A stretch of 41,341 bases of DNA from a virus: the UHGV virus genome UHGV-0069723. One strand, given 5' to 3'. A program made the translations under genes and the position numbers. The notes beneath the pieces are model-generated. The model had not been told where the DNA came from and did not search any database. It saw only the letters and a list, made by a program, of their open reading frames with translations. Below are positions 11,039 to 31,325 of the stretch, piece after piece; the first letter of the stretch is position 1, and each line of letters starts with the position of its first letter.

Positions 11039-11369
11039 ATCAGCAGCAGAGCGCAAAGCCGCTCAGAGAGCCAGACAAGCTGCATCTGGTGTGTGTAAGC
11101 TGGAAATTGTGCTTGATGCTCAGGAAATTGAAATGCTGGCGCGGAACTGCGCCGCCCGGCGCCCTAGTCGCGATCCCTATGAAATGGCCGAGTACATCGC
11201 GCTGCTGATCCGCCAGGATGATGCACGTGTGCGCGGGCGTATAAAATCGATCAGCAGAAAACTTTGCGGTAAGTGCGGCGAGAGAGTTCCCGTTAATTCA
11301 TGCCCGTGTAATGGTGACTCGCAATGCTGGGTGACTAAAGGCTGGCATGAAACGAAATTAATAGTGTGA
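11028..11369 (+). CDS. Hypothetical protein with C-terminal Cys cluster
   Basis: 113 aa; C-terminal CGKCGERVPVNSCPCNGDSQC suggests metal binding; stop codon lies inside the GTGACATGTCAC palindrome. Confidence 0.55.
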   Translation: MMAKSAAERKAAQRARQAASGVCKLEIVLDAQEIEMLARNCAARRPSRDPYEMAEYIALLIRQDDARVRGRIKSISRKLCGKCGERVPVNSCPCNGDSQCWVTKGWHETKLIV

Positions 11370-11377
11370 CATGTCAC
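11366..11377. repeat. 12-bp perfect palindrome GTGACATGTCAC (copy 1 of 3)
   Basis: Exact copies at 13631-13642 and 31288-31299; overlaps the stop codon of the upstream gene. Confidence 0.6.
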
Positions 11378-11417
11378 GAGTAGATTATGCATGATGAATT
11401 TGATGGGTTTTGAATAC

Positions 11418-11444
11418 TGCCGCCAACTATGGCGGCTTTATTTT
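11418..11444 (+). terminator. Rho-independent terminator between nin-like genes and terS
   Basis: Hairpin TGCCGCC-AACTAT-GGCGGC followed by TTTATTTT. Confidence 0.6.
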
Positions 11445-11455
11445 GCATGGTACTA

Positions 11456-11488
11456 TTACCACAACGGTAACTATTACCACGGTGGTTA
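11456..11488. promoter_or_regulatory. Two TTACC-N5-GGTAA-type sites just upstream of terS
   Basis: TTACCACAACGGTAA (11456-11470, perfect) and TTACCACGGTGGTTA (11474-11488, one mismatch) ending at the terS start codon. Confidence 0.5.
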
Positions 11489-12084
11489 TGATGCCTGCTG
11501 AACCTAAAACCTATAAACGCAAATCAACGCAATTTAAGCCACTAACAGCAATGCAGGAGGCTTATTGCCAGTCATACATCAAAACGCCTGAAAACCAGAC
11601 TCAGGCAGCGATTAACGCAGGATTCTCCCCAAATACAGCGGCAGTTAAAGCCAGTGTCATGATGCGCGATGAACGCATTCAAAAACGGATTGCCGAGCTG
11701 ATGGAGGAGCGCAACAAACGAATGCGCGTCAGTGCTGATTACGTTCTCATGCGCCTGGTGGAGATCGACCAGATGGACGTGATCGACATCCTCAACGACG
11801 ATGGGAGCCTTAAGCCAATCCGCGAGTGGCCGAAAATCTGGCGCACTACGCTTAGCGGCTTTGATCTGTCATCGACCATCATGAACATGAACGAGGATTC
11901 GATAGAGACAATCCTCAAAAAAATTAAATGGCCTGACAAGGTGAAGAACCTCGAGCTTATCGGTAAGCACGTCGACGTCAACGCGTTCAAAGAGCGCCTG
12001 GATGTTAATGTGAATGTGACAATTGCTGATCGCATAGCGGCAGCCAGGAAGCGACTCAAAGAACGTCAGGATGGTAATCAGTGA
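11488..12084 (+). CDS. Terminase small subunit
   Basis: 198 aa from ATG 11488; LTAMQEAYCQSYIKTPENQTQAAINAGFSPNTAAVKASVMMRDERIQKRI matches the terS (Terminase_2-type) N-terminal pattern; precedes terL with a 4-nt overlap. Confidence 0.85.
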   Translation: MMPAEPKTYKRKSTQFKPLTAMQEAYCQSYIKTPENQTQAAINAGFSPNTAAVKASVMMRDERIQKRIAELMEERNKRMRVSADYVLMRLVEIDQMDVIDILNDDGSLKPIREWPKIWRTTLSGFDLSSTIMNMNEDSIETILKKIKWPDKVKNLELIGKHVDVNAFKERLDVNVNVTIADRIAAARKRLKERQDGNQ

Positions 12085-13556
12085 CAGATGCAGTGTTATC
12101 TCCTGAAGAGCAGTTAATCGAAGATATTGCAGGGTTCACTCACGATCCGCTTGGCTATGCCCTCTATGCGTTCCCGTGGGGGGAAGAGGGGACTGAACTG
12201 GCACATGCCACCGGCCCACGTCAGTGGCAGGCTGATGCGTTCCGAGAGATACGTGATCACCTGCAGAATCCAGAGACGCGCTATCAGCCGCTTATGCTGG
12301 CACGCGCTTCTGGTCACGGTATTGGTAAATCCGCATTCATCTCAATGCTGATCAACTGGGGCATGTCCACTTGCGAGGATTGTAAGGTCGTGGTGACCGC
12401 CAACACCGACAACCAGCTACGAACGAAGACTTGGCCGGAAATTATCAAGTGGTCGAACCTTGCTATCACGAAAGACTGGTTTACCTGTACCGCTACCGCG
12501 ATGTACAGCAATGACCCTGGGCACGACAAGCGGTGGCGAGCTGACGCAATCCCCTGGTCTGAGCACAACACTGAGGCATTCGCCGGATTACACAATGAGC
12601 GCAAACGCATCATCGTGGTATTCGATGAAGCGTCGAACATTGCGGATCTGGTGTGGGAAGTTGCCGAGGGTGCGCTAACGGACGAAGACACTGAGATTAT
12701 CTGGGTGGCGTTCGGAAACCCGACGCGTAATACCGGACGTTTCCGTGAATGTTTCCGCAAGTATAAACACCGCTGGAAAACTGCGCAGATTGACAGTCGG
12801 ACGGTGGAAGGTACCAACAAACAGCAGTTGCAGAAATGGGTTGATGACTACGGGGAAGACAGCGACTTCGTTAAAATCCGTGTGCGTGGCATATTCCCTG
12901 ATGCATCTGAATTGCAGTTTATCCCTACCGGTCTTACTGACGAGGCAATAAAACGGGTGGTAACCGCTGCGCAGGTTGCACATGCTCCGGTGATAATCGG
13001 CGTTGACCCGGCATACTCCGGCGTTGATGACGCTGTGATATACCTGCGGCAGGGGCTACACAGTAAGGTGCTGTGGACTGGAAACAAGACTACCGACGAT
13101 CTGATTATGGCGAAGCGTATCGCTGACTTTGAAGACCAGTATCAGGCTGACGCGGTGTTCATCGACTTTGGTTACGGAACCGGTTTGAAGTCAATCGGTG
13201 ACGGCTGGGGTCGTACATGGCAACTTGTTCCGTTCGGTGGCGCGTCTACTGACCCGCAGATGCTCAACAAGCGTGGGGAGATGTTCAACTCATGCAAGAC
13301 ATGGCTGAGGCTTGGCGGCATGCTGGATGACCATGAAACAGCGGACGACCTGTCGGCGGCAGAGTACAAAGTTCGAGTGGACGGTAAAATCGTTATCGAA
13401 CCGAAGGAAGATATCAAAGAGCGGCTTGGGCGTTCTCCTGGTAAAGGCGATGCGCTACTGCTGACGTTTGCGTTCCCTGTGTCGAAGCGTCTGCGAATTC
13501 CCGGTCAGCAGAACCAGCAAGGCAAGGCCATCACAGATTACGATCCCTATGCTTAA
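12081..13556 (+). CDS. Terminase large subunit
   Basis: 491 aa directly after terS; ATPase-like N-terminal region and nuclease-like C-terminal region with conserved acidic residues. Confidence 0.9.
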   Translation: MTDAVLSPEEQLIEDIAGFTHDPLGYALYAFPWGEEGTELAHATGPRQWQADAFREIRDHLQNPETRYQPLMLARASGHGIGKSAFISMLINWGMSTCEDCKVVVTANTDNQLRTKTWPEIIKWSNLAITKDWFTCTATAMYSNDPGHDKRWRADAIPWSEHNTEAFAGLHNERKRIIVVFDEASNIADLVWEVAEGALTDEDTEIIWVAFGNPTRNTGRFRECFRKYKHRWKTAQIDSRTVEGTNKQQLQKWVDDYGEDSDFVKIRVRGIFPDASELQFIPTGLTDEAIKRVVTAAQVAHAPVIIGVDPAYSGVDDAVIYLRQGLHSKVLWTGNKTTDDLIMAKRIADFEDQYQADAVFIDFGYGTGLKSIGDGWGRTWQLVPFGGASTDPQMLNKRGEMFNSCKTWLRLGGMLDDHETADDLSAAEYKVRVDGKIVIEPKEDIKERLGRSPGKGDALLLTFAFPVSKRLRIPGQQNQQGKAITDYDPYA

Positions 13557-13606
13557 TCCGCTGGTGGGGATAATGTCGTTGATATCCTCTGGTGAGGATA
13601 AAACAA

Positions 13607-13630
13607 AGCCAGCTCATCGGCTGGCTGTTT
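13607..13630. terminator. Hairpin after terL, possibly a bidirectional terminator
   Basis: AGCCAGC-TCATCG-GCTGGCT with T-rich sequence on both strands; sits between convergent genes. Confidence 0.5.
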
Positions 13631-13642
13631 GTGACATGTCAC
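13631..13642. repeat. 12-bp perfect palindrome GTGACATGTCAC (copy 2 of 3)
   Basis: Identical to copies at 11366 and 31288; immediately 3' of the terL terminator hairpin. Confidence 0.6.
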
Positions 13643-13646
13643 GGTG

Positions 13647-14003
13647 TTATTGCTCGCTTAACTTCTGCTTCAGCAAGTAACCTTCGAGCATCCAGATTTT
13701 GTTTACAGCATTCTGCCGGGCAATCTTCCGACCAATTTCTGCATCAAAATTTTCCGGACTTGCACAGGCACTCTCTCCGGTGACGGTGAAGCCATTCTTC
13801 AGTACCAATACGCAGAAAGTCAGGAGGTCTGTAGATTTATGCGCTGTCCATGAATCGCCAACGCCCATATTGGCAGCACGAATGCCGTCATAAGCAGTAA
13901 AGAAATGCTCTTCAAGAATGATGCTTTCGATATATTGAGGCGTAACTCGCGGAGCGGTTTTGCCTTTCTCAACGATTTCTTTTTCGATTTGCTGGTCGTT
14001 CAT
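13647..14003 (-). CDS. Hypothetical protein (possibly Gp49-like), antisense to the late operon
   Basis: 118 aa; AAGGTGAG RBS; lies with the tRNA on the minus strand between terL and the portal gene. Confidence 0.5.
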   Translation of the reverse strand: MNDQQIEKEIVEKGKTAPRVTPQYIESIILEEHFFTAYDGIRAANMGVGDSWTAHKSTDLLTFCVLVLKNGFTVTGESACASPENFDAEIGRKIARQNAVNKIWMLEGYLLKQKLSEQ

Positions 14004-14013
14004 AATCTCACCT

Positions 14014-14038
14014 TAAAAAAATGCCCGGCGAACCGGGC
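14014..14038 (-). terminator. Rho-independent terminator (minus strand)
   Basis: Minus-strand hairpin GCCCGG-TTCG-CCGGGC followed by a T-run; just upstream of the 13647-14003 gene RBS. Confidence 0.5.
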
Positions 14039-14115
14039 GAACTGGAAGCAATGAGTTATGCCTTCCGTGGCTGTACGGGTTTACAGCATGAAGTCATCGC
14101 AATGGCGTCCTGCTG

Positions 14116-14158
14116 TAAAAAGGGCGGTGATAGTCCTTCAAGGGAAACCATCACCGCC
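14116..14158 (-). terminator. Rho-independent terminator of the tRNA gene
   Basis: 9-bp stem GGCGGTGAT/ATCACCGCC followed by TTTTT on the minus strand, about 45 nt 3' of the tRNA. Confidence 0.6.
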
Positions 14159-14201
14159 AAGCCCCTGGAACTTCTGGCATCACGGTCCTTAGGCGTGATT
14201 C

Positions 14202-14278
14202 TGGTGTGGCATGCAGGATTCGAACCTGCGACCAACCGCTTAGAAGGCGGTTGCTCTGTCCAACTGAGCTAATGCCAC
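14202..14278 (-). tRNA. tRNA-Arg (anticodon UCU, reads AGA), phage-encoded, CCA encoded
   Basis: Hand-folded cloverleaf: acceptor GTGGCAT/ATGCCAC, D-arm GCTC-AGTTGGACA-GAGC, anticodon stem ACCGC/GCGGT with loop CTTCTAA, T-arm GCAGG-TTCGAAT-CCTGC, discriminator A plus CCA; 77 nt. Confidence 0.9.
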
Positions 14279-14600
14279 AACGCTGAGAGCACTTAGCCTG
14301 TTAAGGCGCCACACTTTGTCGCGGCTCCATAAATGCTCTCATCGTTGTACCCTCGTCTCTTCCGAGGCGTCACACCGAATCGCCGGGATGGTGAATCCCC
14401 GTGCGCGGAATAAAACCGCTCGACTTGCACATTCCGGCTACCTGGTTCGTTTGCCCGAGCAAGGTAGGGTGCCCCTTAAACGTATCCAGACCGCTATCGT
14501 CGCATGTGCCATACGCCGTACTGCTCAAAATAAAAGCTCACTCCACCTGTTCAATTTAACGACAAGCCAGTCAGGTTAGTAACCGGAATGAACTTTTTTG

Positions 14601-14615
14601 TTACCCGAAGGGTAA
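14601..14615. promoter_or_regulatory. Perfect TTACC-N5-GGTAA site upstream of the head gene block
   Basis: TTACCCGAAGGGTAA, about 90 bp upstream of the first late-strand ORF. Confidence 0.5.
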
Positions 14616-14705
14616 TAATTCGCGCGTTAAATGTCAACTGCCTACGATAAATAAATCATATGTGGTTAAATTGGTAATAATTTAATTGCGTACGGAGTCA
14701 TTGAT

Positions 14706-14912
14706 ATGTGCATGGGTAGCTCACCATCAGTGCCTGCAACACCAGAAGTTCAGGCAGCACCACAGGAGCAGGATTCCGCCGTTGTTGATGCCCGAGACGA
14801 AGAAACTCGTCGCCGTCGCGCTGCTGCTGGTCGTAGTTCTACGCTGCTTACCGGTTCTCAGGGCGACACATCAACCGCTAATACCAGCGGTAAAACGCTG
14901 CTTGGTCAGTAA
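14706..14912 (+). CDS. Small hypothetical protein upstream of portal
   Basis: 68 aa ORF ending 15 nt before the portal start; GGAG 9 nt upstream; overlapping alternative frame (14686-14925) cannot be excluded. Confidence 0.35.
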   Translation: MCMGSSPSVPATPEVQAAPQEQDSAVVDARDEETRRRRAAAGRSSTLLTGSQGDTSTANTSGKTLLGQ

Positions 14913-14926
14913 CCGGAGTCATTGAA

Positions 14927-16606
14927 ATGGCGGAAACAACTAAAGAGCGATTGAACAAACAGTTCGCACAACTTGAAAGCGAGCGTCAGTCGTTCGAGCC
15001 GCACTGGCGCGAGTTGAGTGATTACATCAACCCGCGTGGTTCCCGCTTTCTGACTTCTGAGGTCAACCGTAACGATCGACGCAATACACGCATTATTGAT
15101 TCGACCGGGACTATGGCGGCGCGCACTCTCGCCAGCGGCATGATGTCAGGCATCACAAGCCCCGCGCGTCCGTGGTTTCGCCTGGCTACGCCAGATCCTG
15201 AAATGATGGATTATGGCCCTGTTAAGTTGTGGCTTGAGGCGGTGCAGAACCGCATGAACGATATGTTCAATAAGTCGAATCTCTACCAGTCTCTTCCGCA
15301 GTTATACGGAAGCCTCGGCACATACAGCACTGGTGCAATGGCGGTGCTGGAGGATGACGAGGACATCATTCGCACAATGCCATTCCCGATAGGCAGTTAC
15401 TACCTGGCTAACTCACCTCGTGGCAGTGTGGACACCTGTTTTCGCAAGTTCTCTATGACTGTTCGTCAGCTTGTTCAGGAGTTCGGGCTAAATAACGTCA
15501 GCGAATCCGTAAAAAGCATGTGGGAAAGCGGCACCTACGAGAAGTGGATTGACGTGATGCATTCGGTTTACCCGAACATTGACCGCGATACATCGAAGCT
15601 GGATAGCAAGAACAAGCCATTCAAATCGGTTTATTACGAGGTTGGTGGCGATAACGACAAGTTGTTGCGTGAGTCCGGATTTGATGAGTTTCCAATTATG
15701 GCTCCGCGCTGGGAAGTTAATGGCGAAGATGTTTATGGATCATCATGCCCGGGTATGCTGGCGCTTGGACCTGTTAAGGCATTGCAGCTTCTCCAGAAGC
15801 GCAAGTCGCAGTTGATTGATAAAGCCACCAATCCGCCGATGGTTGCTCCGACTTCCCTCAAGAATCAGCGCGCCTCCCTTCTTCCTGGCGACATCACGTA
15901 TATCGATCAGATTACTGGTCAGGATGGTTTCAGGCCTGCTTATCTGGTTAACCCCAGTACAGCAGATCTGGTAGCAGACATTCAGGACACTCGTCAAATC
16001 ATTAACAGCGCCTACTTTGTCGATCTGTTCATGATGTTGCAGAACATCAATACCCGCTCGATGCCTGTTGAAGCGGTGATCGAAATGAAAGAAGAAAAAC
16101 TTCTGATGTTGGGGCCGGTTCTGGAGCGTCTGAACGACGAATGTCTTAACCCTCTCATTGACCGCGCTTTCTCGATGATGGTGCGTAAAAACATGCTGCC
16201 GCCACCGCCTGACGCGATGGAAGGTATGCCCCTGAAGGTCGAATACATTTCCGTCATGGCTCAGGCGCAGAAGTCTATCGGCCTGTCCAGTCTGGCGTCC
16301 ACGGTTAACTTCATTGGTCAACTTGCGCAAGCGAAACCAGAAGCTCTCGACAAACTCAACGTTGATCAGGCGATCGATGCATTCGCTGATATGTCCGGAG
16401 TGTCTCCAACCGTCATTGTTCCGCAGGAACAGGTTGAGCAGGCTCGCCAGCAACGGGCACAGCAGCAACAGCAGCAACAAATGATGGCGATGGGGATGGC
16501 GGCGGCACAGGGTGCCAAGACGCTAAGCGAAGCTAAAACTTCGGATCCGAGTGTTTTGTCAGCTATGGCGAATGCAGTTAGTGGTCAGGGTGGGCAATCA
16601 CAATGA
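14927..16606 (+). CDS. Portal (head-to-tail connector) protein
   Basis: 559 aa, first large gene of the structural block, followed by scaffold and major capsid genes; Gln-rich C-terminal tail. Confidence 0.85.
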   Translation: MAETTKERLNKQFAQLESERQSFEPHWRELSDYINPRGSRFLTSEVNRNDRRNTRIIDSTGTMAARTLASGMMSGITSPARPWFRLATPDPEMMDYGPVKLWLEAVQNRMNDMFNKSNLYQSLPQLYGSLGTYSTGAMAVLEDDEDIIRTMPFPIGSYYLANSPRGSVDTCFRKFSMTVRQLVQEFGLNNVSESVKSMWESGTYEKWIDVMHSVYPNIDRDTSKLDSKNKPFKSVYYEVGGDNDKLLRESGFDEFPIMAPRWEVNGEDVYGSSCPGMLALGPVKALQLLQKRKSQLIDKATNPPMVAPTSLKNQRASLLPGDITYIDQITGQDGFRPAYLVNPSTADLVADIQDTRQIINSAYFVDLFMMLQNINTRSMPVEAVIEMKEEKLLMLGPVLERLNDECLNPLIDRAFSMMVRKNMLPPPPDAMEGMPLKVEYISVMAQAQKSIGLSSLASTVNFIGQLAQAKPEALDKLNVDQAIDAFADMSGVSPTVIVPQEQVEQARQQRAQQQQQQQMMAMGMAAAQGAKTLSEAKTSDPSVLSAMANAVSGQGGQSQ

Positions 16607-16899
16607 CAGATTACGAAGACGATCAACTGAAAGAAGAAAACGCCCGTAAGCAACGTGACATGGCGCAGCGTGAAATTGATGACATTCGCTTTGTCATGAG
16701 CAGTGAACAGGGGCGTCGCGTTGTCTGGTCGGTGCTGGAGAAAGGCCGTGTGTTTTCCGCTATCTCACCGATGGACGCTATGGCAATGGCATTTAATGAG
16801 GGGCAACGCAATCTGGCGCTGGAACTGTTTCAGCGCGTTATGGCGCATTGCCCTGAACAGTATTTGAAGATGGCCAAAGAGGCCAGTGAACAGGAGTGA
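16603..16899 (+). CDS. Hypothetical head-assembly protein
   Basis: 98 aa; start overlaps the portal stop (ATGA). Confidence 0.55.
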   Translation: MTDYEDDQLKEENARKQRDMAQREIDDIRFVMSSEQGRRVVWSVLEKGRVFSAISPMDAMAMAFNEGQRNLALELFQRVMAHCPEQYLKMAKEASEQE

Positions 16900-16901
16900 T
16901 C

Positions 16902-17597
16902 ATGAATTTATTTGAGCGTTTGCTGTATCGCCGTCTTTGCAATGAGCAACCAGTCGATGGTGGAGCAGCTCCGGCTGCGTCAGAACCATCAGCGCCTGCA
17001 GGTGATAACCATGCTCCAGTTGGTGATCCATCACAACAGGAAGGTGATAAGCCACAACCTGTTGCTGATGGCGATAAACCTGCTGATGACAAAAAGCCTG
17101 AAAACGATAAGCAGGATGAAAAAAAGGACGGCAATAAACCAGAGGGTGCGCCTGAGAAGTACGAGTTTCAGGCTGCCGAAGGCGTAGAGCTGGATACAGA
17201 AGCGTTGAAGGAATTCGAGCCTGTGGCGCGAGGACTTAACCTGACCAACGAGCAAGCGCAAAAGCTGGTTGATGCTTATCCGAAGATTCTGGCAGGTGTT
17301 CAGCAGCGCCAGGCAGAAGCCTGGCAGAAAACAACCGAGCAGTGGGCTGCGGATGTAAAAGCTGACAAAGAAATCGGTGGCGACAAGTTGATTTCTAACC
17401 TTAGCGCCGCACAGCGTGCGCTTGACCAGTTCGGGACACCTGAGCTCAAAGAATATCTGAACACCACCGGGCTGGGTAATCACCCTGATCTGGTCAAAAC
17501 GTTCGTGAAAATCGGAAAGGCGATGTCTGAAGATGGCATGGTCACCGGTGGTAATGAAGGCCAGCGTAGTGCGGCCGAAGTGCTCTATGGCAAATAA
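16902..17597 (+). CDS. Scaffolding protein candidate
   Basis: 231 aa from ATG 16902 with AGGAG RBS; acidic, Pro/Asp/Lys-rich N-terminal half, helical C-terminal half; directly upstream of the major capsid gene. Confidence 0.6.
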   Translation: MNLFERLLYRRLCNEQPVDGGAAPAASEPSAPAGDNHAPVGDPSQQEGDKPQPVADGDKPADDKKPENDKQDEKKDGNKPEGAPEKYEFQAAEGVELDTEALKEFEPVARGLNLTNEQAQKLVDAYPKILAGVQQRQAEAWQKTTEQWAADVKADKEIGGDKLISNLSAAQRALDQFGTPELKEYLNTTGLGNHPDLVKTFVKIGKAMSEDGMVTGGNEGQRSAAEVLYGK

Positions 17598-17605
17598 GAG
17601 AGGAA

Positions 17606-18598
17606 ATGACAATGGCTGTTAAAGGCTTAACTGCGCTAACGCTGGCTGACTGGGGTAAGCGCGTCGATCCAAACGGGAAAGTCGATAAGATTATCGAGCT
17701 TCTCGGTCAAACTAACCCGATCCTTCAGGATATGCCTTTTGTCGAAGGGAACCTTCCTACCGGACACCGAACCACCATTCGTTCTGGTTTACCTTCGGCC
17801 ACCTGGCGTTTGCTGAACTATGGCGTACAGCCAAGCAAATCAACCACAGTGCAGGTCACCGATTCCGTTGGAATGCTGGAAACCTATGCTGAAGTCGATA
17901 AGTCACTGGCTGATCTGAACGGTAATACCGCCGAATTCCGCCTGTCTGAAGACCGCGCATTTATTGAAGCGATGAATCAGCAGATGGCGCAGACGTTGTT
18001 TTATGGTGATTCCAGCGTTAACCCTCAGCAGTTTATGGGACTGTCCTCCCGCTATTCCAGCCTGTCTGCGGGTAATGCTCAGAACATCATTGATGCTGGT
18101 GGCACGGGTACAGATAACACCTCAATCTGGTTAGTGGTGTGGGGCGAAAACACCGTGCATGGCATCTTCCCGAAAGGGCAGAAGGCTGGCATCCAGATGG
18201 AAGATAAAGGCCAGGTGACACTGGAAGATGCGAATGGCGGCAAGTACGAAGGCTACCGTACCCATTACAAATGGGACAACGGACTTGCTCTGCGTGACTG
18301 GCGTTATGTTGTTCGCATTGCAAACATCGATGTCAGCAATCTTTCAGAACCTTCCTCTGCCGCAAATATTGCGAAGTTGATGGTTAAAGCACTGCATCGC
18401 ATTCCAAATCGTGGCATGGGTCGCCCGGTGTTCTACATGAACCGCACTGTAGGCCAGGCTCTTGATCTGCAATCTCTGGAGAAAACATCTCTGGCGATCA
18501 GCGTAAAAGAGACAGAAGGCGAGTGGTGGACTTCATTCCGTGGTGTACCAATCCGTGAAACTGATGCGCTTCTGGAAACAGAAGCCCGCGTGGTGTAA
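17606..18598 (+). CDS. Major capsid protein
   Basis: 330 aa directly after the scaffold gene, followed by a partial terminator further downstream; position and size fit an HK97-fold capsid protein. Confidence 0.8.
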   Translation: MTMAVKGLTALTLADWGKRVDPNGKVDKIIELLGQTNPILQDMPFVEGNLPTGHRTTIRSGLPSATWRLLNYGVQPSKSTTVQVTDSVGMLETYAEVDKSLADLNGNTAEFRLSEDRAFIEAMNQQMAQTLFYGDSSVNPQQFMGLSSRYSSLSAGNAQNIIDAGGTGTDNTSIWLVVWGENTVHGIFPKGQKAGIQMEDKGQVTLEDANGGKYEGYRTHYKWDNGLALRDWRYVVRIANIDVSNLSEPSSAANIAKLMVKALHRIPNRGMGRPVFYMNRTVGQALDLQSLEKTSLAISVKETEGEWWTSFRGVPIRETDALLETEARVV

Positions 18599-18649
18599 CG
18601 CCTGTTATTAACCTGTGGATCGTAACAGACCCACTAATGGAGAAAGAAG

Positions 18650-19087
18650 ATGATCACCGACAAACTGTTGATGTTCTCCGAAGCTCAGGCGGTTACGAAT
18701 ACCGCGGCTTCTACTGACGTAATCGATCTCGGTCCAATTGACGGAAAACGTCGTGATATCGGCGTGGGTTACCCGCTTGAGTTTTGGGCGCTGGTTAACA
18801 CAGCCGCCGCGGCAAGCGGTGATGCAACTGTAAACATCCAGTTGCAGACGAGTGAGAATAACAGCTCATGGACCACTATTTATGATAGTGGCGCACTGGC
18901 AAAGACCGCCATGACAGCAGGTAAACGAGTTGTTTCTGCAAAGGTGCCTGCCGGTGTTCAGCGATATCTGCGTGTTAACTACTCCGTCGCAACTGGCCCA
19001 CTAACGGCTGGCGAATTCACTGCTGGTATCAGTCTTGATGTTGATGCCAATACGCCGTATCCGATCCGCTCAAAAGTAACTGGTTAA
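18650..19087 (+). CDS. Hypothetical virion protein (possible capsid decoration or accessory)
   Basis: 145 aa ORF in the structural block. Confidence 0.55.
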   Translation: MITDKLLMFSEAQAVTNTAASTDVIDLGPIDGKRRDIGVGYPLEFWALVNTAAAASGDATVNIQLQTSENNSSWTTIYDSGALAKTAMTAGKRVVSAKVPAGVQRYLRVNYSVATGPLTAGEFTAGISLDVDANTPYPIRSKVTG

Positions 19088-19097
19088 GGTGATATCG

Positions 19098-19433: not shown

Positions 19434-19448
19434 GCCTCGCGAATCCGA

Positions 19449-19471
19449 CAAGGGGCTTCGGCCCCTTTATT
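19449..19471 (+). terminator. Candidate partial terminator within the late operon
   Basis: Hairpin AGGGGC-TTCG-GCCCCT followed by TTATT (weak T-run). Confidence 0.45.
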
Positions 19472-19483
19472 GCAGGAGTGTAT

Positions 19484-23347: not shown

Positions 23348-23886
23348 TGTGTAACCCAGCCATCGCTTTGGTTGCCGTCACAGTGGCATCCACAGCCGCG
23401 TCAATGTACAGCCAGAGCAAGCAGGCAAAATACCAGTCAGCCATAGCTGATCGGAATGCTGAAATTGCTGAAGCTCAGGCACAGGATTCAATCAATCGTG
23501 GGAATATTGAAGCGGATCAGCGTCGTCGTGAAATGCGTCAACGCTCAGGCACTGCGGCGGCCACTATGGGGGCTACCGGTGCGGAATTAAGTAGCGGAAC
23601 AGCTCTTGACGTTTTTGCGGATAATGCTCAGTTCGGCACTCTTGATGCGTTAACGACAGTGAATAATGCTCAGCGTGAGGCATATGGGTATCAGGTTCAG
23701 GGAATGAATGCTCAGGCACAGGGGGCTGCTGCTCAGTCGGCTGCTAAATCATCGATGACCAGCACTTTGTTAACGGCACCACTAAAAGCATACGGTGCAT
23801 ACCAGATGGGCGGCGGAACGTGGAGCCCGTTCTCTCAGAAAGCTGCGCCGATTTCTGCTGCTGTTGGCACTCCAACCGGTCGATAA
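23347..23886 (+). CDS. Small internal virion protein candidate
   Basis: 179 aa; Ala/Gln-rich with hydrophobic N-terminus. Confidence 0.5.
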   Translation: MCNPAIALVAVTVASTAASMYSQSKQAKYQSAIADRNAEIAEAQAQDSINRGNIEADQRRREMRQRSGTAAATMGATGAELSSGTALDVFADNAQFGTLDALTTVNNAQREAYGYQVQGMNAQAQGAAAQSAAKSSMTSTLLTAPLKAYGAYQMGGGTWSPFSQKAAPISAAVGTPTGR

Positions 23887-23898
23887 GGGGATAATAAG

Positions 23899-26412
23899 AT
23901 GCCAGTTGTACCAACAACATCGGGCCGTCAGGTTCAAAGCAGAGGGATTTCGACGCAGGGATTCTCATCGTTTCAGACACCAAATGTCGGTGATGTACTT
24001 GGCGATGTTGCAGAGCAATATGCAGGTATTATTGCGCAGGCAAAACAGCGTGCGAATGTTGCTATGGCTCAGGATGCTTCTCTTAGCTTAAGCCAGATAA
24101 GCAGCGATCTGCTGAATAACCCTGAAACAGGTTTGCTTAACCTGAAAGGGAAAAATGCTATTGGAAAAGGTCAGGAGTATACGCAGCAGTTTGATGCTCA
24201 GGTCGAACAACTGGCTATGTCGCTGCTGGATGAACAGGCTCGTAATGCTTTCATGCAGCAGGCGCAGCAGCAGCGCATTCAGTTCACTACGCAGGCCGGG
24301 CGGCACGAGATAGGGCAAATAAATGCCTACGAAGAAGGCCAGTTTCAGGCTACGCTGCTGAACAATGGTAAAAATGCCGCAGCATTGTATGGCGACAACG
24401 CCGCATACGTATTGGCTAATAAGCAAACTTTCCAGCAAATTGAGGATTACGGCATTGCACATGGCTGGAGTGACGAGCAAATCCAGGCCAAGAAAATCGA
24501 GTTTAAAGAAGCAACAGCAAAAGCAACTGCTCAAAATGCTATTGGAGCAAACTATCTTCAGGTAAGACAGCAAAACGGCGAGTTAAGCGATACTGCTGCT
24601 GGTTCTCGCCGTGCTGTAGCAGATAGTGGCTCTTCCGATCGTACCCGCGGTATACGCAACAATAACCCCGGCAATCTTGAATACAGCAAAACTAATCCGT
24701 GGGTTGGGCAGACTGGTGATGATGGTCGCTTTGCCAAATTCGAAACCCCTGAACACGGTATTCGTGCATTAGGGCGGAACCTGATGTCGTATCAGCAGCA
24801 GGGTATTGATACCGTCAGCGAGATAATTAATCGCTGGGCACCGCCTACTGATAAAAATGACACTATGTCGTATATCAAAGCAGTGTGCGAACAACTTGGC
24901 GTTTCTGCTGATGAGCCTCTCGATGCATCAAATCCTGATACCCTGAAGGCGCTTTGTGCAGCCATTATCCATCATGAAAACGGTAGCCAGCCATACAGTG
25001 ATCAGCAGTTAACTGCAGGTGTTAGTGCTGCGCTGGGGCTTTCTCAGCTACCGACAAAAAATAAACGTTATACCGGTGTAGCCTGGTTCGATGCTTTAAG
25101 TGAATCAGATCAGGCCAGCGTGTTGCGACAGACTGATGCACTAGCCAGACAACAGCAGGCTGAATATAAAACGATGCTCGACAGCCGGGTTCGCGATGCG
25201 ACGGCTGCGTATATGCGTGGCATTGAATTTCCTAACCCACCTGGTGAGGATGATTTTATTGCAGCTTATGGAGTCAGAGAAGGAAACCTGCGATATACCG
25301 AGTTTAAGAATACGCAGATCGCCGGACAGTATATAGGCTCTTTCCGCAACATGCCGACAAGCAGCATTACAGCATATGTTGAGCAATTACGCCCGGATAC
25401 TGGTGATACAGGGGAGGGGTATGCGGCACGCGCAACTCTTTATGACAACGTTGTTTCGGCTGCAAATCAGGTGATAAAGCAGCGGCAGTCGGATCCTGTG
25501 CAGTTCTCTCTTGCCTCCGGACAGGCAAAGCCTATCGACATGAGCAATAAGGATAACTTTGGACAGAGCGTTGCCTTGCGTGCCGCTCAGGTCAGTGACC
25601 TTGCTAAGTCATATGGCACTCCACTGACGTTCTTTTCCAAAGACGAGGCCAATCAGATCGGTGTTTTCTTTCGTGATGCTCCAGTTTCCCAACAGGCAGC
25701 ATATCTCGATACCATCAGGCAGAGCACTGGTGGTGGGCAGGTGTATATGTCAGCACTACAGCAGATCAGTGCCAACGCTCCATCTGCTGCCGTTGCCGGG
25801 ATACTGATGGATAAGCCTGGTGGTATTTTGGCAGAAAAAAACTGGTTTAATCCGGATGTTTCCGTGTCTCCTGAAACCGCTGCGCAGACAATTCTTGCTG
25901 GCGCGGCGGCTCGTAAAGGTACTGATGATGCGAAAGGTATTCCGATGCCTAAAGATGCTGATCTTCGCCTTGAGTTTTCTGACATGGTGAAGGATGCATT
26001 TGCTGGTGACGCTCAGGGCGCATCAATGGCATACGAGATCGCAAAGGATTATTACGCTGGTGTGATGGCGAAAAAAGGCGTGGTATCAGGCGAAATTGAC
26101 AATGATGTCTGGAAACAGGCTGTTAACGTAGCTACAGGTGGCGTGCATGACTATAACGGAATGGGGAATGTCCTTTTGCCGTGGGGAATGTCTGCAGAGC
26201 AATTCGATAAGCAGGTTAATCAGGCTTGGAATGAACAAGTTGTCGGCTCAGGGATAAAAACACCGCCTGGTCAGTATGGTTTGCAAAGTTACGGCGATAG
26301 TCAGTACCTGGTGAAACTTGGTACTGGTTATCTGTTGAAAGATGATGGTTCTCCCGTTGTTCTTAATCTGACACAGAAGCGTCAGAGATTCTCCGGAGAT
26401 ATTCCGCAATGA
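23899..26412 (+). CDS. Large internal virion / ejection protein (possible cell-wall-degrading domain)
   Basis: 837 aa; segment GIRNNNPGNLEYSKTNPWVGQTGDDGRFAKFETPEHGIRALGRNL resembles motifs I associate with virion-associated muralytic domains (tentative). Confidence 0.6.
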   Translation: MPVVPTTSGRQVQSRGISTQGFSSFQTPNVGDVLGDVAEQYAGIIAQAKQRANVAMAQDASLSLSQISSDLLNNPETGLLNLKGKNAIGKGQEYTQQFDAQVEQLAMSLLDEQARNAFMQQAQQQRIQFTTQAGRHEIGQINAYEEGQFQATLLNNGKNAAALYGDNAAYVLANKQTFQQIEDYGIAHGWSDEQIQAKKIEFKEATAKATAQNAIGANYLQVRQQNGELSDTAAGSRRAVADSGSSDRTRGIRNNNPGNLEYSKTNPWVGQTGDDGRFAKFETPEHGIRALGRNLMSYQQQGIDTVSEIINRWAPPTDKNDTMSYIKAVCEQLGVSADEPLDASNPDTLKALCAAIIHHENGSQPYSDQQLTAGVSAALGLSQLPTKNKRYTGVAWFDALSESDQASVLRQTDALARQQQAEYKTMLDSRVRDATAAYMRGIEFPNPPGEDDFIAAYGVREGNLRYTEFKNTQIAGQYIGSFRNMPTSSITAYVEQLRPDTGDTGEGYAARATLYDNVVSAANQVIKQRQSDPVQFSLASGQAKPIDMSNKDNFGQSVALRAAQVSDLAKSYGTPLTFFSKDEANQIGVFFRDAPVSQQAAYLDTIRQSTGGGQVYMSALQQISANAPSAAVAGILMDKPGGILAEKNWFNPDVSVSPETAAQTILAGAAARKGTDDAKGIPMPKDADLRLEFSDMVKDAFAGDAQGASMAYEIAKDYYAGVMAKKGVVSGEIDNDVWKQAVNVATGGVHDYNGMGNVLLPWGMSAEQFDKQVNQAWNEQVVGSGIKTPPGQYGLQSYGDSQYLVKLGTGYLLKDDGSPVVLNLTQKRQRFSGDIPQ

Positions 26413-28211
26413 GTTACTTTGGCCTTAATCCAGTAAACCAGAATCAGCAGCTTGACGAAGCAGCATCAAATCCAGCTGGCTTTAACAGCGATGTTGGTTT
26501 TTTCGACAATGCTGTAGGAGCGGCATTGTCTGGTTTGTACTCCGGGCTGGTGGCAAAGCCAGATCAGTTGCTATGGGCAGGGATGGATAAAATCGTATCC
26601 CCGATTGCTCAGTTTGTTAACGAAAACACCTCGATCAATGACACTTCAGTTTCATACATTGCTGAGCAGAGAAAACTAGCAGAGCAGCAGGTTAAGCGGC
26701 TGACGCCTGATGCCGCGACAACCGGAACCGCCGGGCAGGTCCTTTATGGGTTGTTCGATATGGGCGGGCAGGCTGTTGTCGGTACAACGCTCGGTGGTCC
26801 GGTCGGAGGTGCTGCGGCGGTAACTTCTCTACAGGGTTTTTCTGAGTTTGAACGGCTTACAGCACAGGGTGTTGATTTCAGGACGGCGCAGGAAGCGGGA
26901 TTAGTGCAGGGTATTACTGCTGGTGCCGGAACACTGATCCCTATGAGCCTCGGGTTACGTGCTGGTGGTGCGCTGGCGGAAGGTGTGGCGGCTCAGCTTG
27001 CGCGGACGGGTGAAAGTTCAGTGCGACGCGCCGCAGCAACAGCAGTACGTGCAACGCCAGATATTGCCTATGCCGCAGGTACAAATATTGCGTTCGGTAT
27101 GGCACAGCGTGGGCTTACTGCAAAAACGCTTCGTGATGGTGGCTATAGCGAAATGGCTAACCAGTATGATGTGTTGGATCGACAGGCAATTGCTATTGAT
27201 GCTGTTCTTGGGGTGGCGTTTGGTGGTGTCGGCAGATTTATTAACTTTCGCGGCGAGTCTACAAGCGCACCAAATTTTTCACTAGTTGATATCGATGCTG
27301 CACTGGCGGCGAATGCCGCTCATCATGCTGAAATTGATATTGCTCCCGGCGTGCCGATCAACGTGCTTTCGCGTAATTCGCACATTCAGGCTCTGCGAAA
27401 AGCCATGTCTGATGTTAGCCAGGGGAGACCTGTAGACGTTGCCAGCATTGTTGAGTCTGCATCTTTCAGTGAAATTCCTGGACGCAAGAGTCTGCTGTCT
27501 CAGGCAGTTAATGAGGCTCTGTCATCTGTAGATGATGGAGTAACGGCGCGCGCTATAGAAAATCGGTTGCTTGAAGAACAGGCCGCGCAGCTTTTGCCGC
27601 GTGGCGATAGACAGGTTTACCAGTCTGAAATCGCTAATAGCCAACGAATTATTGAAAATCTCACTGAACAGCGCGCACAAATTCTTGCAGAAGATCCAGC
27701 CGGTAGCGGTAAGGCTTTATCTCGTGCTCGATCAGATAAACAGGCCAGACTTCGCGATATTGACCAACGAATCCGGCAGGCACAAGAACGCCTGGAATTT
27801 TCTCGTAACGCGTTGGCACCGCATGAGCCTGGCGGTCAGTTTTTTGAAGCTCGAGCAGAACTGGCTCGGAGACAGCAGGCAGAAAGTGAACTTAATGCTC
27901 AGGCTGTTTCATTCTATAAAACAGCAGAGGTCAGGACGCCAGACGAAGTAGCTCCTTTTGAGCCTGATAAAATATTGCAACAGGCAGAACAAAAAATGAT
28001 GTCAGATCAGGCAGGAGATATTGATTTGCGCATAGCTGAAGACTCGCTGCTTGAATCACCTGACATGATAATCACCGTGCTGGATGATGATGGTAATCCA
28101 CAATCGCGCAGTGCGCGTGAAGCACTGGATGAAGCGAACAGGGAAAGTGAGCAGGCAATACAGGATTCCAGCCTGTTTGATGTCGCTGTGGCGTGTTTCT
28201 TGAGAGGTTAA
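26409..28211 (+). CDS. Large internal virion / ejection protein
   Basis: 600 aa; Gly/Ala-rich N-terminal region, coiled-coil C-terminal region. Confidence 0.6.
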   Translation: MSYFGLNPVNQNQQLDEAASNPAGFNSDVGFFDNAVGAALSGLYSGLVAKPDQLLWAGMDKIVSPIAQFVNENTSINDTSVSYIAEQRKLAEQQVKRLTPDAATTGTAGQVLYGLFDMGGQAVVGTTLGGPVGGAAAVTSLQGFSEFERLTAQGVDFRTAQEAGLVQGITAGAGTLIPMSLGLRAGGALAEGVAAQLARTGESSVRRAAATAVRATPDIAYAAGTNIAFGMAQRGLTAKTLRDGGYSEMANQYDVLDRQAIAIDAVLGVAFGGVGRFINFRGESTSAPNFSLVDIDAALAANAAHHAEIDIAPGVPINVLSRNSHIQALRKAMSDVSQGRPVDVASIVESASFSEIPGRKSLLSQAVNEALSSVDDGVTARAIENRLLEEQAAQLLPRGDRQVYQSEIANSQRIIENLTEQRAQILAEDPAGSGKALSRARSDKQARLRDIDQRIRQAQERLEFSRNALAPHEPGGQFFEARAELARRQQAESELNAQAVSFYKTAEVRTPDEVAPFEPDKILQQAEQKMMSDQAGDIDLRIAEDSLLESPDMIITVLDDDGNPQSRSAREALDEANRESEQAIQDSSLFDVAVACFLRG

Positions 28212-28216
28212 ATTAA

Positions 28217-30691
28217 ATGAGACAGGAATGTATACAAGCGGTTCAGCAGGCGGCGCAGCGCATGTTAACGGCGCGAGAAATACAGAACATTGAAGACCGC
28301 ATTTATCGAAATATGCGCTCCATTGCTCGTGATGACCCTATATCGTGGCGACAACTTTCCGAATCAGAGCGGCTATATCGAGCAGCACAATTGGCATCTG
28401 AAGAATTACAGCGAGAAGCGGCATTAAAGAAACGTCGTGTGGCTCTCACTATAGCCGCGCGTCAGAGATTGGATAAATTTATCAATAGCTATCAAGGGGC
28501 TGATGGGAAACTTGGCGCTCTTAACCGTACTATAGCTTTTAATGCAGACGGTAAATCTAATTTCCTCTCTGTTGAATCCAGAACAAAAGCCACCCGTGAT
28601 TATGCATTGAGTCAATTGCAGGAGGCATTCGAAGCAGTTGATCCTCGCTTTTTTGGTCTGTTTGAAGATGAAGCGGGCGTACGTGACCTGGTATATGAAA
28701 TGCGGGGGCAAAATACTGGCAATGCTAAAGCAAGAAACGGTGCTAAGGCGTGGAGAGAAGTTACAGAGCTGCTGCGCCGCCGGTTTAATGATGCTGGTGG
28801 GGACATTGGCTATCTCGAAAACTGGGGGATCCCTCAACATCATTCTATGGAAAAGGTTGGGGCAGTATCAAAGGATAAGTGGGTTAGCGATGTTATAGGT
28901 AAGCTGGATCGCAAATATTATATCCGAGCCGATGGACAACTGATGAACGATGCCGAGTTGTCTTCATTTCTTGGAGAGGCTTATAACACGATCGCTACTG
29001 GTGGGCTGAATAAGCTTACTGATACCGGAATGCGAATTTCCGGCGCACGTGCTAACCGTGGTAATGCATCACGACAGATACATTTCAAAGATGCAGATTC
29101 CTATCTGCAATATCAGCAACTTTATGGCGATCGCTCTCTATGGGAAATCATGGTCGGTCACCTGGAAGGTATCAGTAAAGATATTGCACTGGTGGAAACA
29201 TATGGCCCAAACCCCGATCATGTTTTCCGCTCTCTTCTTGATCAGGTGAAGGCAGAAACGGCAACAGCTAACCCGAGTAAAACCGGTAAAGTCGAGCGGC
29301 TGGCGAACAACACAGAGAATCTGTACAACTTTATTTCCGGAAAGACACAGCCTGTAGCGAATCCGCACATCGCGCGATGGTCTGACAATATCCGCAACTG
29401 GCTGGTTGCCAGCAGACTCGGATCCGCGTTGCTGTCATCGTTCTCTGATCTTGGAACCATGTATCTGTCTGCGAAGGTTACCAACCTTCCAATGAACCAG
29501 TTATTCCGCAACCAGCTTGAAGCTATGGACCCAACGAACCGTACAGAACTTGCGCGGGCGCGCCGCGCTGGTCTGGCGATGGAATCTCTACTTGGCAGCG
29601 TTAACCGCTGGGCGATGGATAATATGGGGCCGTCAGTGTCTCGTTGGGCGGCAACGGCGGTAATGCGTGCCAGTGGGCTTACAGCATGGTCAGATGCGCA
29701 CAAGCGCGCCTATGGCGTAACCATGATGGGAAGCCTGGGAGAAGTAGTGTCACGGACACCAGACCTTCGTAGCCTCGATGACTCTGATTTTCGTATCCTG
29801 AAAAGCAAAGGGATTACTGACACAGACTGGAGCGTATGGAAGCTGGCGAAACAGGAGGACTGGGGGAACGGTAATAATATGATGCTGACACCGGAAAGCA
29901 TTATGCGTATCCCTGATTCAGCAGTTAAACATCTTGGTGAGCCTGAACGCGTGAAATTTGAGGCAATGCGTAAACTGCTCGGTGCCGTAACTGAAGAAGT
30001 TGATATGGCTGTTATTACACCGGGAGCACGTGAGCAACTGATAACCGGTTCTGGTATTCAGCGTGGAACATGGAAAGGTGAATTAACGAGAAGTGTTTTC
30101 CTGTTTAAATCGTTCCCTATCTCGGTTGTTATGCGTCACTGGTCACGCGCTATGGGTATGCCGTCTGCTGGTGGGCGTGCGGCATATATTGCGACGTTTA
30201 TTGCCAGTACGACCATTCTTGGCGCTTTGTCGCAGCAACTTAACGACCTTGCGTCTGGTCGTAATCCTCGAGAGATGACAGGAGAAGATGCCGCAAAATT
30301 CTGGCTTGGTGCTCTACTGAAAGGTGGTGGTCTTGGCCTTTACGGTGACTTTTTATTGTCAGATCACACTAGGTACGGAAGCGGCGCGCTGGCGTCGATG
30401 CTTGGCCCGGTAGCTGGTCTGGTTGATGACGTAGTGAAGATTGCTCAGGGCATACCGTTAAATGCTGTGGAAGGGAAGAGTGAGCAGACTGGTGGTGATC
30501 TGGTGAAGCTGGGGAAAGGTTTGATGCCTGGTGCGAATCTCTGGTACTTGAAGGCGGCTCTCGATCACATGATCTTTAACCAGATGCAGGAGTATTTTTC
30601 ACCAGGCTATTTGCGTAAAATGGAGCAACGTTCGAAGAAAGAGTTTAACCAGACATACTGGTGGCGACCACAGGATGTCACTCCGCAATAA
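28217..30691 (+). CDS. Large internal virion / ejection protein
   Basis: 824 aa; last gene of the long late operon before the accessory region. Confidence 0.6.
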   Translation: MRQECIQAVQQAAQRMLTAREIQNIEDRIYRNMRSIARDDPISWRQLSESERLYRAAQLASEELQREAALKKRRVALTIAARQRLDKFINSYQGADGKLGALNRTIAFNADGKSNFLSVESRTKATRDYALSQLQEAFEAVDPRFFGLFEDEAGVRDLVYEMRGQNTGNAKARNGAKAWREVTELLRRRFNDAGGDIGYLENWGIPQHHSMEKVGAVSKDKWVSDVIGKLDRKYYIRADGQLMNDAELSSFLGEAYNTIATGGLNKLTDTGMRISGARANRGNASRQIHFKDADSYLQYQQLYGDRSLWEIMVGHLEGISKDIALVETYGPNPDHVFRSLLDQVKAETATANPSKTGKVERLANNTENLYNFISGKTQPVANPHIARWSDNIRNWLVASRLGSALLSSFSDLGTMYLSAKVTNLPMNQLFRNQLEAMDPTNRTELARARRAGLAMESLLGSVNRWAMDNMGPSVSRWAATAVMRASGLTAWSDAHKRAYGVTMMGSLGEVVSRTPDLRSLDDSDFRILKSKGITDTDWSVWKLAKQEDWGNGNNMMLTPESIMRIPDSAVKHLGEPERVKFEAMRKLLGAVTEEVDMAVITPGAREQLITGSGIQRGTWKGELTRSVFLFKSFPISVVMRHWSRAMGMPSAGGRAAYIATFIASTTILGALSQQLNDLASGRNPREMTGEDAAKFWLGALLKGGGLGLYGDFLLSDHTRYGSGALASMLGPVAGLVDDVVKIAQGIPLNAVEGKSEQTGGDLVKLGKGLMPGANLWYLKAALDHMIFNQMQEYFSPGYLRKMEQRSKKEFNQTYWWRPQDVTPQ

Positions 30692-30699
30692 AAGGAGAT

Positions 30700-30825
30700 A
30701 TGATGGTTCAAATAACTTTTATTGTACTAATATGTGCAGCGTTTTTATGCTATTCATACATTTTGATAAAAATGGGTTTCAATTGGAATCTCTGTTGCGT
30801 GCAGCGGCATGGTTCGGCTTTGTAG
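30700..30825 (+). CDS. Small hydrophobic peptide (moron candidate)
   Basis: Hand-called 41 aa ORF (MMVQITFIVLICAAFLCYSYILIKMGFNWNLCC...) with AAAGGAG RBS; the alternative track frame 30675-30863 is also hydrophobic, so the frame is uncertain. Confidence 0.3.
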   Translation: MMVQITFIVLICAAFLCYSYILIKMGFNWNLCCVQRHGSAL

Positions 30826-30910
30826 TATTCGGAATTGTATTGTTCGGAAGAATAATAAAATAACTAGTTAATTTGTGGATTGGTGCTGTTTTTCCATGAT
30901 AGGGGTAATT

Positions 30911-31291
30911 ATGAGAAAAGTATTTTTGATTTTTGGATTTATGCTTCTCGTTGGATGCCAGTCAGCTGCACAGTTTGAAAGAAATATGCTTACGTGGCGC
31001 GGGCAGAGTATAGACGCAATGGTTCAGCAGTGGGGGTATCCTCAGGGAGAGCTTACATCTCCAGATGGAAACAGAGTGTATGTTTACTCAAGCTCTGGTA
31101 GTTATAACGTACCACAAACCACAACGTATAATACTACGTCTAATCTAATTGGTAATACTATATATTCAAACACATACGCAACAACTGATGGCGGTTATAC
31201 ACTCCATTTCAGTTGCTCTGTTTACGTTGAGTTTGGTGCTGATAAGATTATTAAAAATGTTACATGGCGCGGTAATAATTGCGTTGCGTGA
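30911..31291 (+). CDS. Lipoprotein (moron), possible BamE/SmpA-OmlA-like N-terminal region
   Basis: 126 aa from ATG 30911; signal peptide with lipobox LLVGC; Thr/Asn/Tyr-rich C-terminal half; visibly AT-rich gene; stop overlaps the GTGACATGTCAC palindrome. Confidence 0.6.
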   Translation: MRKVFLIFGFMLLVGCQSAAQFERNMLTWRGQSIDAMVQQWGYPQGELTSPDGNRVYVYSSSGSYNVPQTTTYNTTSNLIGNTIYSNTYATTDGGYTLHFSCSVYVEFGADKIIKNVTWRGNNCVA

Positions 31292-31299
31292 CATGTCAC
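31288..31299. repeat. 12-bp perfect palindrome GTGACATGTCAC (copy 3 of 3)
   Basis: Identical to copies at 11366 and 13631; overlaps the lipoprotein stop codon and abuts a terminator hairpin. Confidence 0.6.
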
Positions 31300-31325
31300 A
31301 GGCCGCTTTCGCGGCCTTGTTTTTA
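31300..31325 (+). terminator. Rho-independent terminator after the lipoprotein gene
   Basis: Hairpin AGGCCGC-TTTC-GCGGCCT followed by TGTTTTT. Confidence 0.6.

Follow-up and report, generated by a model that had tools for sequence, protein, structure and literature searches.

A 12-bp palindrome at operon ends of a Uetakevirus prophage and its linkage to the gp49/N15-gp46 gene family

Why would a phage keep one and the same 12-bp perfect palindrome at the ends of three of its operons? UHGV virus genome UHGV-0069723, a stretch of 41,341 nucleotides (the window, below) that represents an epsilon15/phiV10-like prophage of the genus Uetakevirus, contains GTGACATGTCAC as an exact match at 11366-11377, 13631-13642 and 31288-31299 and nowhere else. 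An initial annotation of the window had judged three exact copies to be beyond chance, and we could confirm both the coordinates and the judgment: in 100 dinucleotide-preserving shuffles of the window the mean was 0.01 copies, the maximum was one, and none of the 100 reached three. On balance we lean towards the reading that GTGACATGTCAC is the cognate site of the 112-amino-acid protein encoded at 11028-11369, by the gene that ends in the first copy, and that the protein, when bound, would act as a roadblock to RNA polymerase or as an insulator between operons. A role as a protein-binding site had been among those suggested for the palindrome in the initial annotation, and it is the one that comparison with other phages supports, with the product of this gene as the candidate binder and its homologues sharing the half-sites at their own stop codons.

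Architecture and conservation of the three copies

The three copies terminate the three rightward operons of the window. Copy 1 (11366-11377) contains the TGA (11367-11369) of the gp49-family gene, with the start of terS about 125 bp further downstream; copy 2 (13631-13642) sits in the convergent gap between terL, which ends at 13556, and a minus-strand gene at 13647-14003 (Pfam Phage_gp49_66); and copy 3 (31288-31299) holds the TGA of a lipoprotein-like open reading frame (ORF) at 30875-31291, at the end of the morphogenesis operon and convergent with a minus-strand C4-RNA/antirepressor cassette. The two stop codons that had been placed inside the palindrome, those of ORFs 11028-11369 and 30875-31291, do lie there, in both cases as palindrome positions 2-4. 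It is equally correct that every copy stands beside a terminator-like hairpin, at distances of 41, 4 and 0 nt. For copy 1 this is a plus-strand hairpin at 11419-11436 (11419-11445 with its T-run), 41 nt downstream and kept in relatives; for copy 2 a minus-strand hairpin at 13626-13607 (13597-13626 with its T-run), 4 nt away, which when read on the plus strand follows terL and has a poor T-run; and for copy 3 a plus-strand hairpin at 31300-31317 (31300-31327 with its T-run) that directly abuts the palindrome and is annotated as a terminator in the phiV10 and epsilon15 records. Copies 2 and 3 thus each adjoin a terminator with a T-run in one direction, and in the other direction the order is hairpin and then palindrome.

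The repeated unit is confined to the 12 bp: alignment of the three loci gave no similarity outside them, so there is no extended repeat, and GTGAC and GTCAC were not found in the window at any other spacing from 0 to 8 nt, so that a version with a 3-bp spacer is absent as well. Several familiar roles could be set aside. A promoter element was rejected, as copies 2 and 3 have no promoter-like match and copy 1 has a single weak one, with the palindrome as -35 hexamer, which is within chance. Nor do the sites look like operators over a regulated promoter, since copies 2 and 3 lie in convergent gaps that lack a promoter-like match. A CRP site (TGTGA-N6-TCACA) is excluded by the 4 nt between TGA and TCA where CRP needs 6, as the initial annotation had recognized, and the flanking T is present in just two of the three copies. 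The phage repressor was rejected as the binder too, because the repressor sites annotated in epsilon15 are a different palindrome, ATTACC-N5-GGTAAT.

Across relatives from E. coli, Salmonella and Klebsiella, GTGACATGTCAC is unchanged while its flanks diverge in both sequence and length. It is exact at all three equivalent positions in epsilon15, SPN1S and ZX5 and at the first two in Klebsiella Kp4865-1. Copy 1 is also exact in TL-2011b; copy 2 is kept in phiV10, epsilon15, ZX5, SPN1S and Kp4865-1 and missing from TL-2011b. Among 80 related loci from IMG/VR, 79 have copy 1 exactly and 52 have copy 2 too, and the 10 kb of early genes upstream in these loci hold no copy. The motif is therefore present at these junctions in related phages, which disposes of the objection, raised together with the initial annotation, that it might be absent from them all.

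The phiV10 record (NC_007804.2; L001) happens to be cut within the palindrome, positions 39101-39104 being joined to 1-8, and its copy 1, read across the record ends, has one mismatch (GTGACATGTTAC); the motif is invisible in the linear record. Two Klebsiella Uetake-like phages, Kp4865-1 (L006, position 24674) and a second one (L007, position 26462), contain one more exact GTGACATGTCAC, within an internal-virion-protein gene; both keep it, and the E. coli and Salmonella relatives do not have it. Right after copy 1 of Kp4865-1, at 12709-12790, we noticed by eye a promoter-like TTGACT and a perfect LexA-box-like CTGT-N8-ACAG, with a UmuD-like ORF (its product begins MGFPSPAADYVEQ) behind them that is inserted ahead of terS. 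A near-copy, GTGACATGGCAC, occurs in a small gene after the portal gene at 16655-16666 of the window, at 5306 of phiV10, and at 16873 and 24810 of two further relatives (L003 and L004, respectively). It has two mismatches in the window and one in the relatives, lies about 5.3 kb beyond copy 1 in many of the IMG/VR loci, and is probably a coding coincidence.

Linkage of the palindrome to the gp49/N15-gp46 gene family

With the protein whose gene ends in copy 1 as query, tblastn picked up homologues in phages of very different types. At 31-58% identity they include those of N15 and phiKO2, P2-like Yersinia phages, a Pantoea myovirus and Vibrio phages, and these homologues have GTGAC-NN-GTCAC at or just past their own stop codon, often together with dispersed copies elsewhere in the genome. 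The TGA again forms palindrome positions 2-4 in gene 46 of the telomere phage N15 (GTGACTGGTCAC), in gp13 of a P2-like Yersinia phage (GTGACGCGTCAC) and in gene 31 of the Pantoea myovirus AH07 (GTGACAGGTCAC). N15 (L090) has copies at 28550, 33237 and 39269 and phiKO2 (L165) at 31182, 36062 and 41939, each GTGACTGGTCAC or its complement; the two sets are syntenic with diverged flanks, one copy lying at the gene 46 stop, one inside repA, and the third between genes where the repA operon ends, some 25 bp ahead of a promoter-like TTGACG-18-TAGAGT that stands before the antirepressor genes. None of these six copies is annotated in the records. The stretch that leads to the N15 antirepressor genes presumably encodes the C4-like cA RNA. 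Vibrio phage K308, with a homologue of 35% identity, has three copies in 23.7 kb near the gene, and in its relatives (98% and 75% identity) the sites are kept at distances from the gene that match those in K308 and have another centre.

How general is this placement? We surveyed 71 loci, each from a different bacterial species, with homologues at 39-81% identity. In 36 of the 71 the palindrome encloses the stop codon, in 52 a palindrome falls within -20 to +30 bp of the stop, and 65 loci have at least one copy, where base composition would predict about 0.04 copies of GTGAC-NN-GTCAC per 40 kb. The architecture is strict. In 1.83 Mb of homologue loci, GTGAC-Nx-GTCAC with x from 0 to 7 was found 4, 1, 122, 2, 0, 1, 4 and 1 times, respectively, and the everted arrangement, counted as a control in the same 1.83 Mb, 0-3 times. 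The ten half-site positions are invariant across the survey and variation is confined to the central two, which differ by clade: mostly AT, GC in Yersinia, TG/CA in N15, and AC, GC or CC in Vibrio. Because homologues in unrelated phages carry the palindrome at their own stop codons, the motif is, as far as sequence comparison can tell, a property of the gp49/gp46 gene family and not of Uetakevirus module junctions.

The position of the sites within genomes was compared with that of random positions on the basis of crude ORF calls, by which 72% of 129 sites are non-coding compared to 17% of random positions and 24% lie in convergent gaps compared to 3%. A terminator-like hairpin was found within 60 bp of 37 of 119 sites compared to 108 of 2100 random positions. 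Among the sites in coding DNA are those in N15 repA, in the internal-virion-protein gene of the Klebsiella phages and in a Q-like gene of AH07. Two loci from Pectobacterium and Symbiopectobacterium (L126 and L130) have tandem palindromes, one at the gene stop (10336) and one 27-28 bp further on (at about 10363), which may reflect cooperative binding; related Pectobacterium loci retain the downstream tandem copy only.

The gene itself (plus strand, 11028-11369, probable ATG at 11031; phrog_536) encodes a Cys-rich protein with an N-terminal basic helix, a ribbon-helix-helix (RHH)-like core and a C-terminal cluster of four cysteines that resembles a Zn-knuckle. Conserved in the family are the basic helix AERKxxQRxR, a helix PYxxxEYIxLLIR and the CxxC...C...C cluster. 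Searches of Pfam, NCBIfam, PADLOC, PDB sequences (with the single sequence and with a profile) and Foldseek gave no match to the protein. A high-confidence AlphaFold model had weak structural matches, all of them RHH proteins and with the MatP-matS complex ranked third, and Pfam RHH models were hit below threshold in just two of the 71 members (RHH_5, E = 0.013; RepB-RCR_reg, E = 0.028). The family comprises 209 clusters at 50% identity (E <= 0.001) among 1.84 billion proteins, carries no label beyond "transcriptional regulator" or "hypothetical", and has Enterobacterales, Vibrio and Aeromonas as hosts. Plasmid records that contain it are mostly those of N15-sized plasmids (about 46-56 kb) from Klebsiella and Escherichia, probably phage-plasmids, with some larger plasmids as well. 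Our literature search found no paper with the 12-mer, and the ZX5 paper and the N15-related papers are silent on both gene and site.

What might the protein do at its site?

We infer that the motif is bound, in duplex DNA, by a dimer of the protein. Duplex DNA is favoured because the half-sites are invariant without compensatory change, the stem that an RNA could form is only 4-5 bp, and the structural matches are DNA binders. A dimer, with its basic helix, RHH-like core and four-Cys metal cluster, would read two GTGAC half-sites 2 bp apart. Gene and site move together among phages that are otherwise unrelated, the site lying at the stop codon or just past it. In Uetakeviruses the packaging and morphogenesis operons each have a further copy at the 3' end. 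The bound protein would form a barrier to RNA polymerase from either side, supplementing intrinsic terminators that work in one direction and insulating convergent operons from each other; at copy 1 it would curb transcription that runs on from the early operon into terS. The protein could, in addition, exert feedback on its own messenger, since a polymerase halted at the stop codon would leave a non-stop mRNA, as happens with LacI at O3. Roadblock action is less certain than binding, and a role as DNA bridge is possible besides it.

The comparison with LacI is instructive because its operator O3, at the 3' end of its own gene, acts as a roadblock (PMC3711431). The likeness to the phage site, where the stop codon lies inside the palindrome in half of the species loci, holds provided that the gp49/gp46 protein is the binder. 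However, the phage protein has an RHH-like rather than a LacI/GalR fold, no inducer is known for it, there is no promoter-proximal primary operator, and roadblocking and transfer-messenger RNA tagging are conjectural in its case. The RHH repressors (Arc/Mnt, CopG, the ParD/TacA antitoxins and TraM) provide the best structural matches and are likewise small proteins with short symmetric targets, at which they act as dimers, as the phage protein presumably does. Unlike them, it has an extra basic helix at the N terminus and a four-Cys domain at the C terminus and does not match a Pfam RHH model above threshold; instead of covering promoters, its sites lie at the ends of operons and at the 3' end of the gene that encodes it, and its locus has neither the toxin partner of the antitoxin systems nor the conjugation context of TraM.

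Several observations weigh against the reading of the protein as a roadblock at its own cognate site. The link between protein and site is wholly comparative, and "transcriptional regulator" is only a label of the protein in PHROGs (phrog_536) and RefSeq, no curated family naming it. Six of the 71 species loci have no site at all, and neither does the 48-kb genome that carries an Aeromonas homologue of 34% identity. The enrichment of terminator-like hairpins near sites comes mostly from Uetake-like phages, and a role as terminator helper is not obvious for the sites in coding DNA. Finally, the 112-amino-acid gene is the last of a rightward early operon that starts beside the repressor gene and a repressor-operator-like site; if this operon is off in lysogens, as we infer, the protein would be absent from the prophage and insulation would be limited to lytic growth.

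Of known systems the closest is that of E. coli MatP, which dimerizes and contacts matS via a ribbon-helix-helix (PMC12756933). Its 13-bp target, matS, is GTGAC[AG]N[TC]GTCAC (PMC3603311, PMC6907758), with the consensus GTGACATTGTCAC (PMC8669397), that is, the phage 12-mer plus one central T. The two systems share identical half-sites, GTGAC and GTCAC, in inverted orientation, and a few copies dispersed over the replicon rather than clustered operators. They differ in spacing, the phage sites having 2 bp between half-sites where matS has 3 (122 and 2 copies, respectively, in the 1.83 Mb); in the protein, which at 112 amino acids lacks the four-helix bundle and coiled coil of MatP and has the four-Cys cluster instead; and in genetics, the phage pair being phage-borne with one site tied to the gene's own stop codon. 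Homology in sequence to MatP could not be established. The MatP domains of Pfam (PF06303 and PF17414) match none of the 71 members, with E values allowed up to 10; comparison by hhalign with one MatP sequence, with its C-terminal half and with 38 close MatPs gave non-significant E values of 0.15-0.67; and in a targeted hmmsearch the family hidden Markov model (HMM) aligned with MatP residues 69-139, which run from the basic helix through the RHH into the first part of the coiled coil, at 5.7 bits, a score reached by 1.1-1.9% of composition-preserving shuffled MatP sequences. The MatPs found by homologue search and metagenome scan were all 89-100% identical sequences and of no use for a diverse profile. 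We consequently take MatP/matS as the nearest of the known systems and as a model that may apply to the function, without placing the phage pair in that family.

Could the same protein at the same site then be organizing DNA rather than stopping polymerase? MatP links remote matS sites, unloads MukBEF and binds ZapB. The phage protein might bridge distant copies in the same manner, or act on host SMC/MukBEF, and so loop the phage chromosome; in the window the loops would be 2.3 kb (terS-terL), 17.7 kb (the morphogenesis genes) and the remainder. The shared half-sites, the span of the HMM alignment and the presence of several dispersed copies per genome, some in coding DNA without promoter or terminator logic, speak for this, as does the range of hosts. 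Enterobacterales, Vibrio and Aeromonas are taxa that have MatP. We nevertheless regard such an architectural role, the foremost functional alternative, as unlikely, given the non-significant similarity to MatP, the missing bundle and coiled coil, and the many phages with a single copy at the gene end, for one copy cannot be bridged. A more specific version, in which gp49/gp46 is a pared-down phage counterpart of MatP and its 12-bp sites, matS minus one base pair, are unusable by the host MatP, we think unlikely too. Were it true, the phage would own private chromosome-organizing or SMC-unloading sites while avoiding true matS, and the site at the stop codon would let gene and site spread as a single unit. 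Very unlikely, in our estimate, is that a host protein, MatP or some other factor, binds the 12-mer and that the phage gene is linked to it in another way, for instance by modulating the host factor. The site is one base pair from consensus matS, and the half-site preference of MatP does differ among species, being GTTAC-N3-GTAAC in Photorhabdus (PMC8669397). Yet all described matS sites are 13 bp, and removal of one central base pair changes both the rotation and the distance of one half-site with respect to the other. In about 500 prophages, Bobay and co-workers detected no true matS, which prophages avoid (PMC3603311), and the background-level count of spacer-3 sites in our 1.83 Mb agrees with this. 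Moreover, the stop codon of one phage gene, in unrelated phages, is a placement that a host site would not need.

Two other ideas had been put forward with the initial annotation, an RNA processing element and a boundary sequence for modular recombination or moron insertion. As RNA, the site could form a GUGA-CNNG-UCAC hairpin at the stop or in the 3' untranslated region, serving as a processing or stability signal or as the RNA target of the Cys-rich protein (compare Mu Com), with an effect on termination or downstream translation. Each window copy can be read in the direction gene stop, palindrome, terminator; in N15 the palindrome at the end of gene 46 stands immediately before the ribosome-binding site of gene 47; and the Zn-knuckle-like cluster would suit an RNA binder. 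Against this, a stem of 4-5 bp folds only marginally, no Rfam family matches at the sites, and across proteins of 31-40% identity there is no compensatory change, the loop-closing C and G being as invariant as the stem. The structural matches are RHH proteins that bind DNA, copy 2 lies beyond the plus-strand terminator and several sites are in convergent gaps, so that we find an RNA element highly improbable. The boundary idea gains from copy 3, where relatives have five different left flanks running up to the palindrome and the same terminator to its right, and where the stretch homologous to phiV10 and TL-2011b starts again at exactly 31287; the lipoprotein ORF, moreover, ends inside the palindrome once again in a Klebsiella prophage. 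This part is circumstantial, as a conserved functional site beside a moron hotspot would give the same picture without any role in recombination. Copies 1 and 2 show nothing of the kind in the relatives compared, the site has no linked recombinase, and the moron ORF is restricted to Uetake-like phages. An inversion or recombination at the palindrome in TL-2011b, which we had suspected, was rejected, the similarity being due to a shared Ant/Bro C-terminal domain whose homology stops 14 nt short of the palindrome. The boundary sequences and moron junctions known from lambdoid phages do resemble copy 3 in being short conserved sequences at a module joint by a terminator, but they have no counterpart to the linkage with one protein family, the strict dyad and the occurrence in non-lambdoid phages, nor does our motif carry a sign of crossover. 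Since a boundary role leaves unexplained the linkage to one gene family across phage types, in phages without shared modules, we consider it the slimmest of the possibilities.

Genome setting and wider meaning

The neighbour labels of the initial annotation proved right as well: terS/terL (11491-13556) by Pfam Terminase_2, a tRNA-Arg at 14202-14278 on the minus strand, alongside the minus-strand gene, and a lipoprotein signal (...LLVGC) in the product of ORF 30875-31291. The integrase gene is at the left end of the window, followed by a leftward early operon that includes the repressor gene (5502-6086), the rightward early operon that closes with the 112-amino-acid ORF, the packaging genes and a long morphogenesis operon that ends at 31291. 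Beyond copy 3 comes the minus-strand cassette, with a Bro-N/antirepressor gene at 33115-33810 and, just upstream of it, a C4 antisense RNA (33858-33943, minus strand; Rfam, 77.7 bits) and an isrK RNA (33968-34043, minus strand; Rfam, 77.9 bits), and then the tailspike gene (34579-37335) and the rest of the prophage. A C4-RNA/antirepressor immunity module of the P1/N15 type thus sits in a Uetakevirus, with its 3' end abutting copy 3. The lipoprotein-like ORF (phrog_3716; its product begins MRKVFLIFGFMLLVGC) is a moron in place of the small membrane protein found there in phiV10 and SPN1S. It has matches only in ZX5, Phi05_1387 and the Klebsiella prophage mentioned above, all Uetake-like, and the idea that this ORF and the palindrome form a travelling cassette was rejected on account of this confinement.

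The second palindrome, ATTACC-N5-GGTAAT, which the epsilon15 record annotates as repressor binding sites, occurs nine times in the window, with one mismatch or none (17 bp each; 5367, 5429, 6141, 8534, 11455, 11473, 14600, 33029 and 34459), whereas shuffles give 0.06. Most lie just upstream of operon starts, namely those of the switch region, terS, the portal operon, the tailspike gene and the antirepressor cassette, and because the annotated repressor palindrome is found at these starts, the late operons may be under direct control of the repressor. In the window, then, operon starts are marked by ATTACC-N5-GGTAAT and the ends of the three rightward operons by GTGACATGTCAC.

What is new here is the pairing itself, of an uncharacterised phage protein family with a precise and testable DNA target. 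Gene and site move together among podoviruses, telomere phages, P2-like phages and Vibrio phages. The target falls one base pair short of matS, which marks the E. coli terminus macrodomain and which prophages otherwise avoid, and this raises the question of whether phages have a MatP-like system of their own or interfere with that of the host. For Uetakeviruses such as epsilon15, phiV10 and SPN1S, the palindrome adds a second genome-wide class of sites, at operon ends, beside the operator-like palindromes at operon starts, and it bears on how transcription is organized in a phage that has no recognised late-gene regulator.

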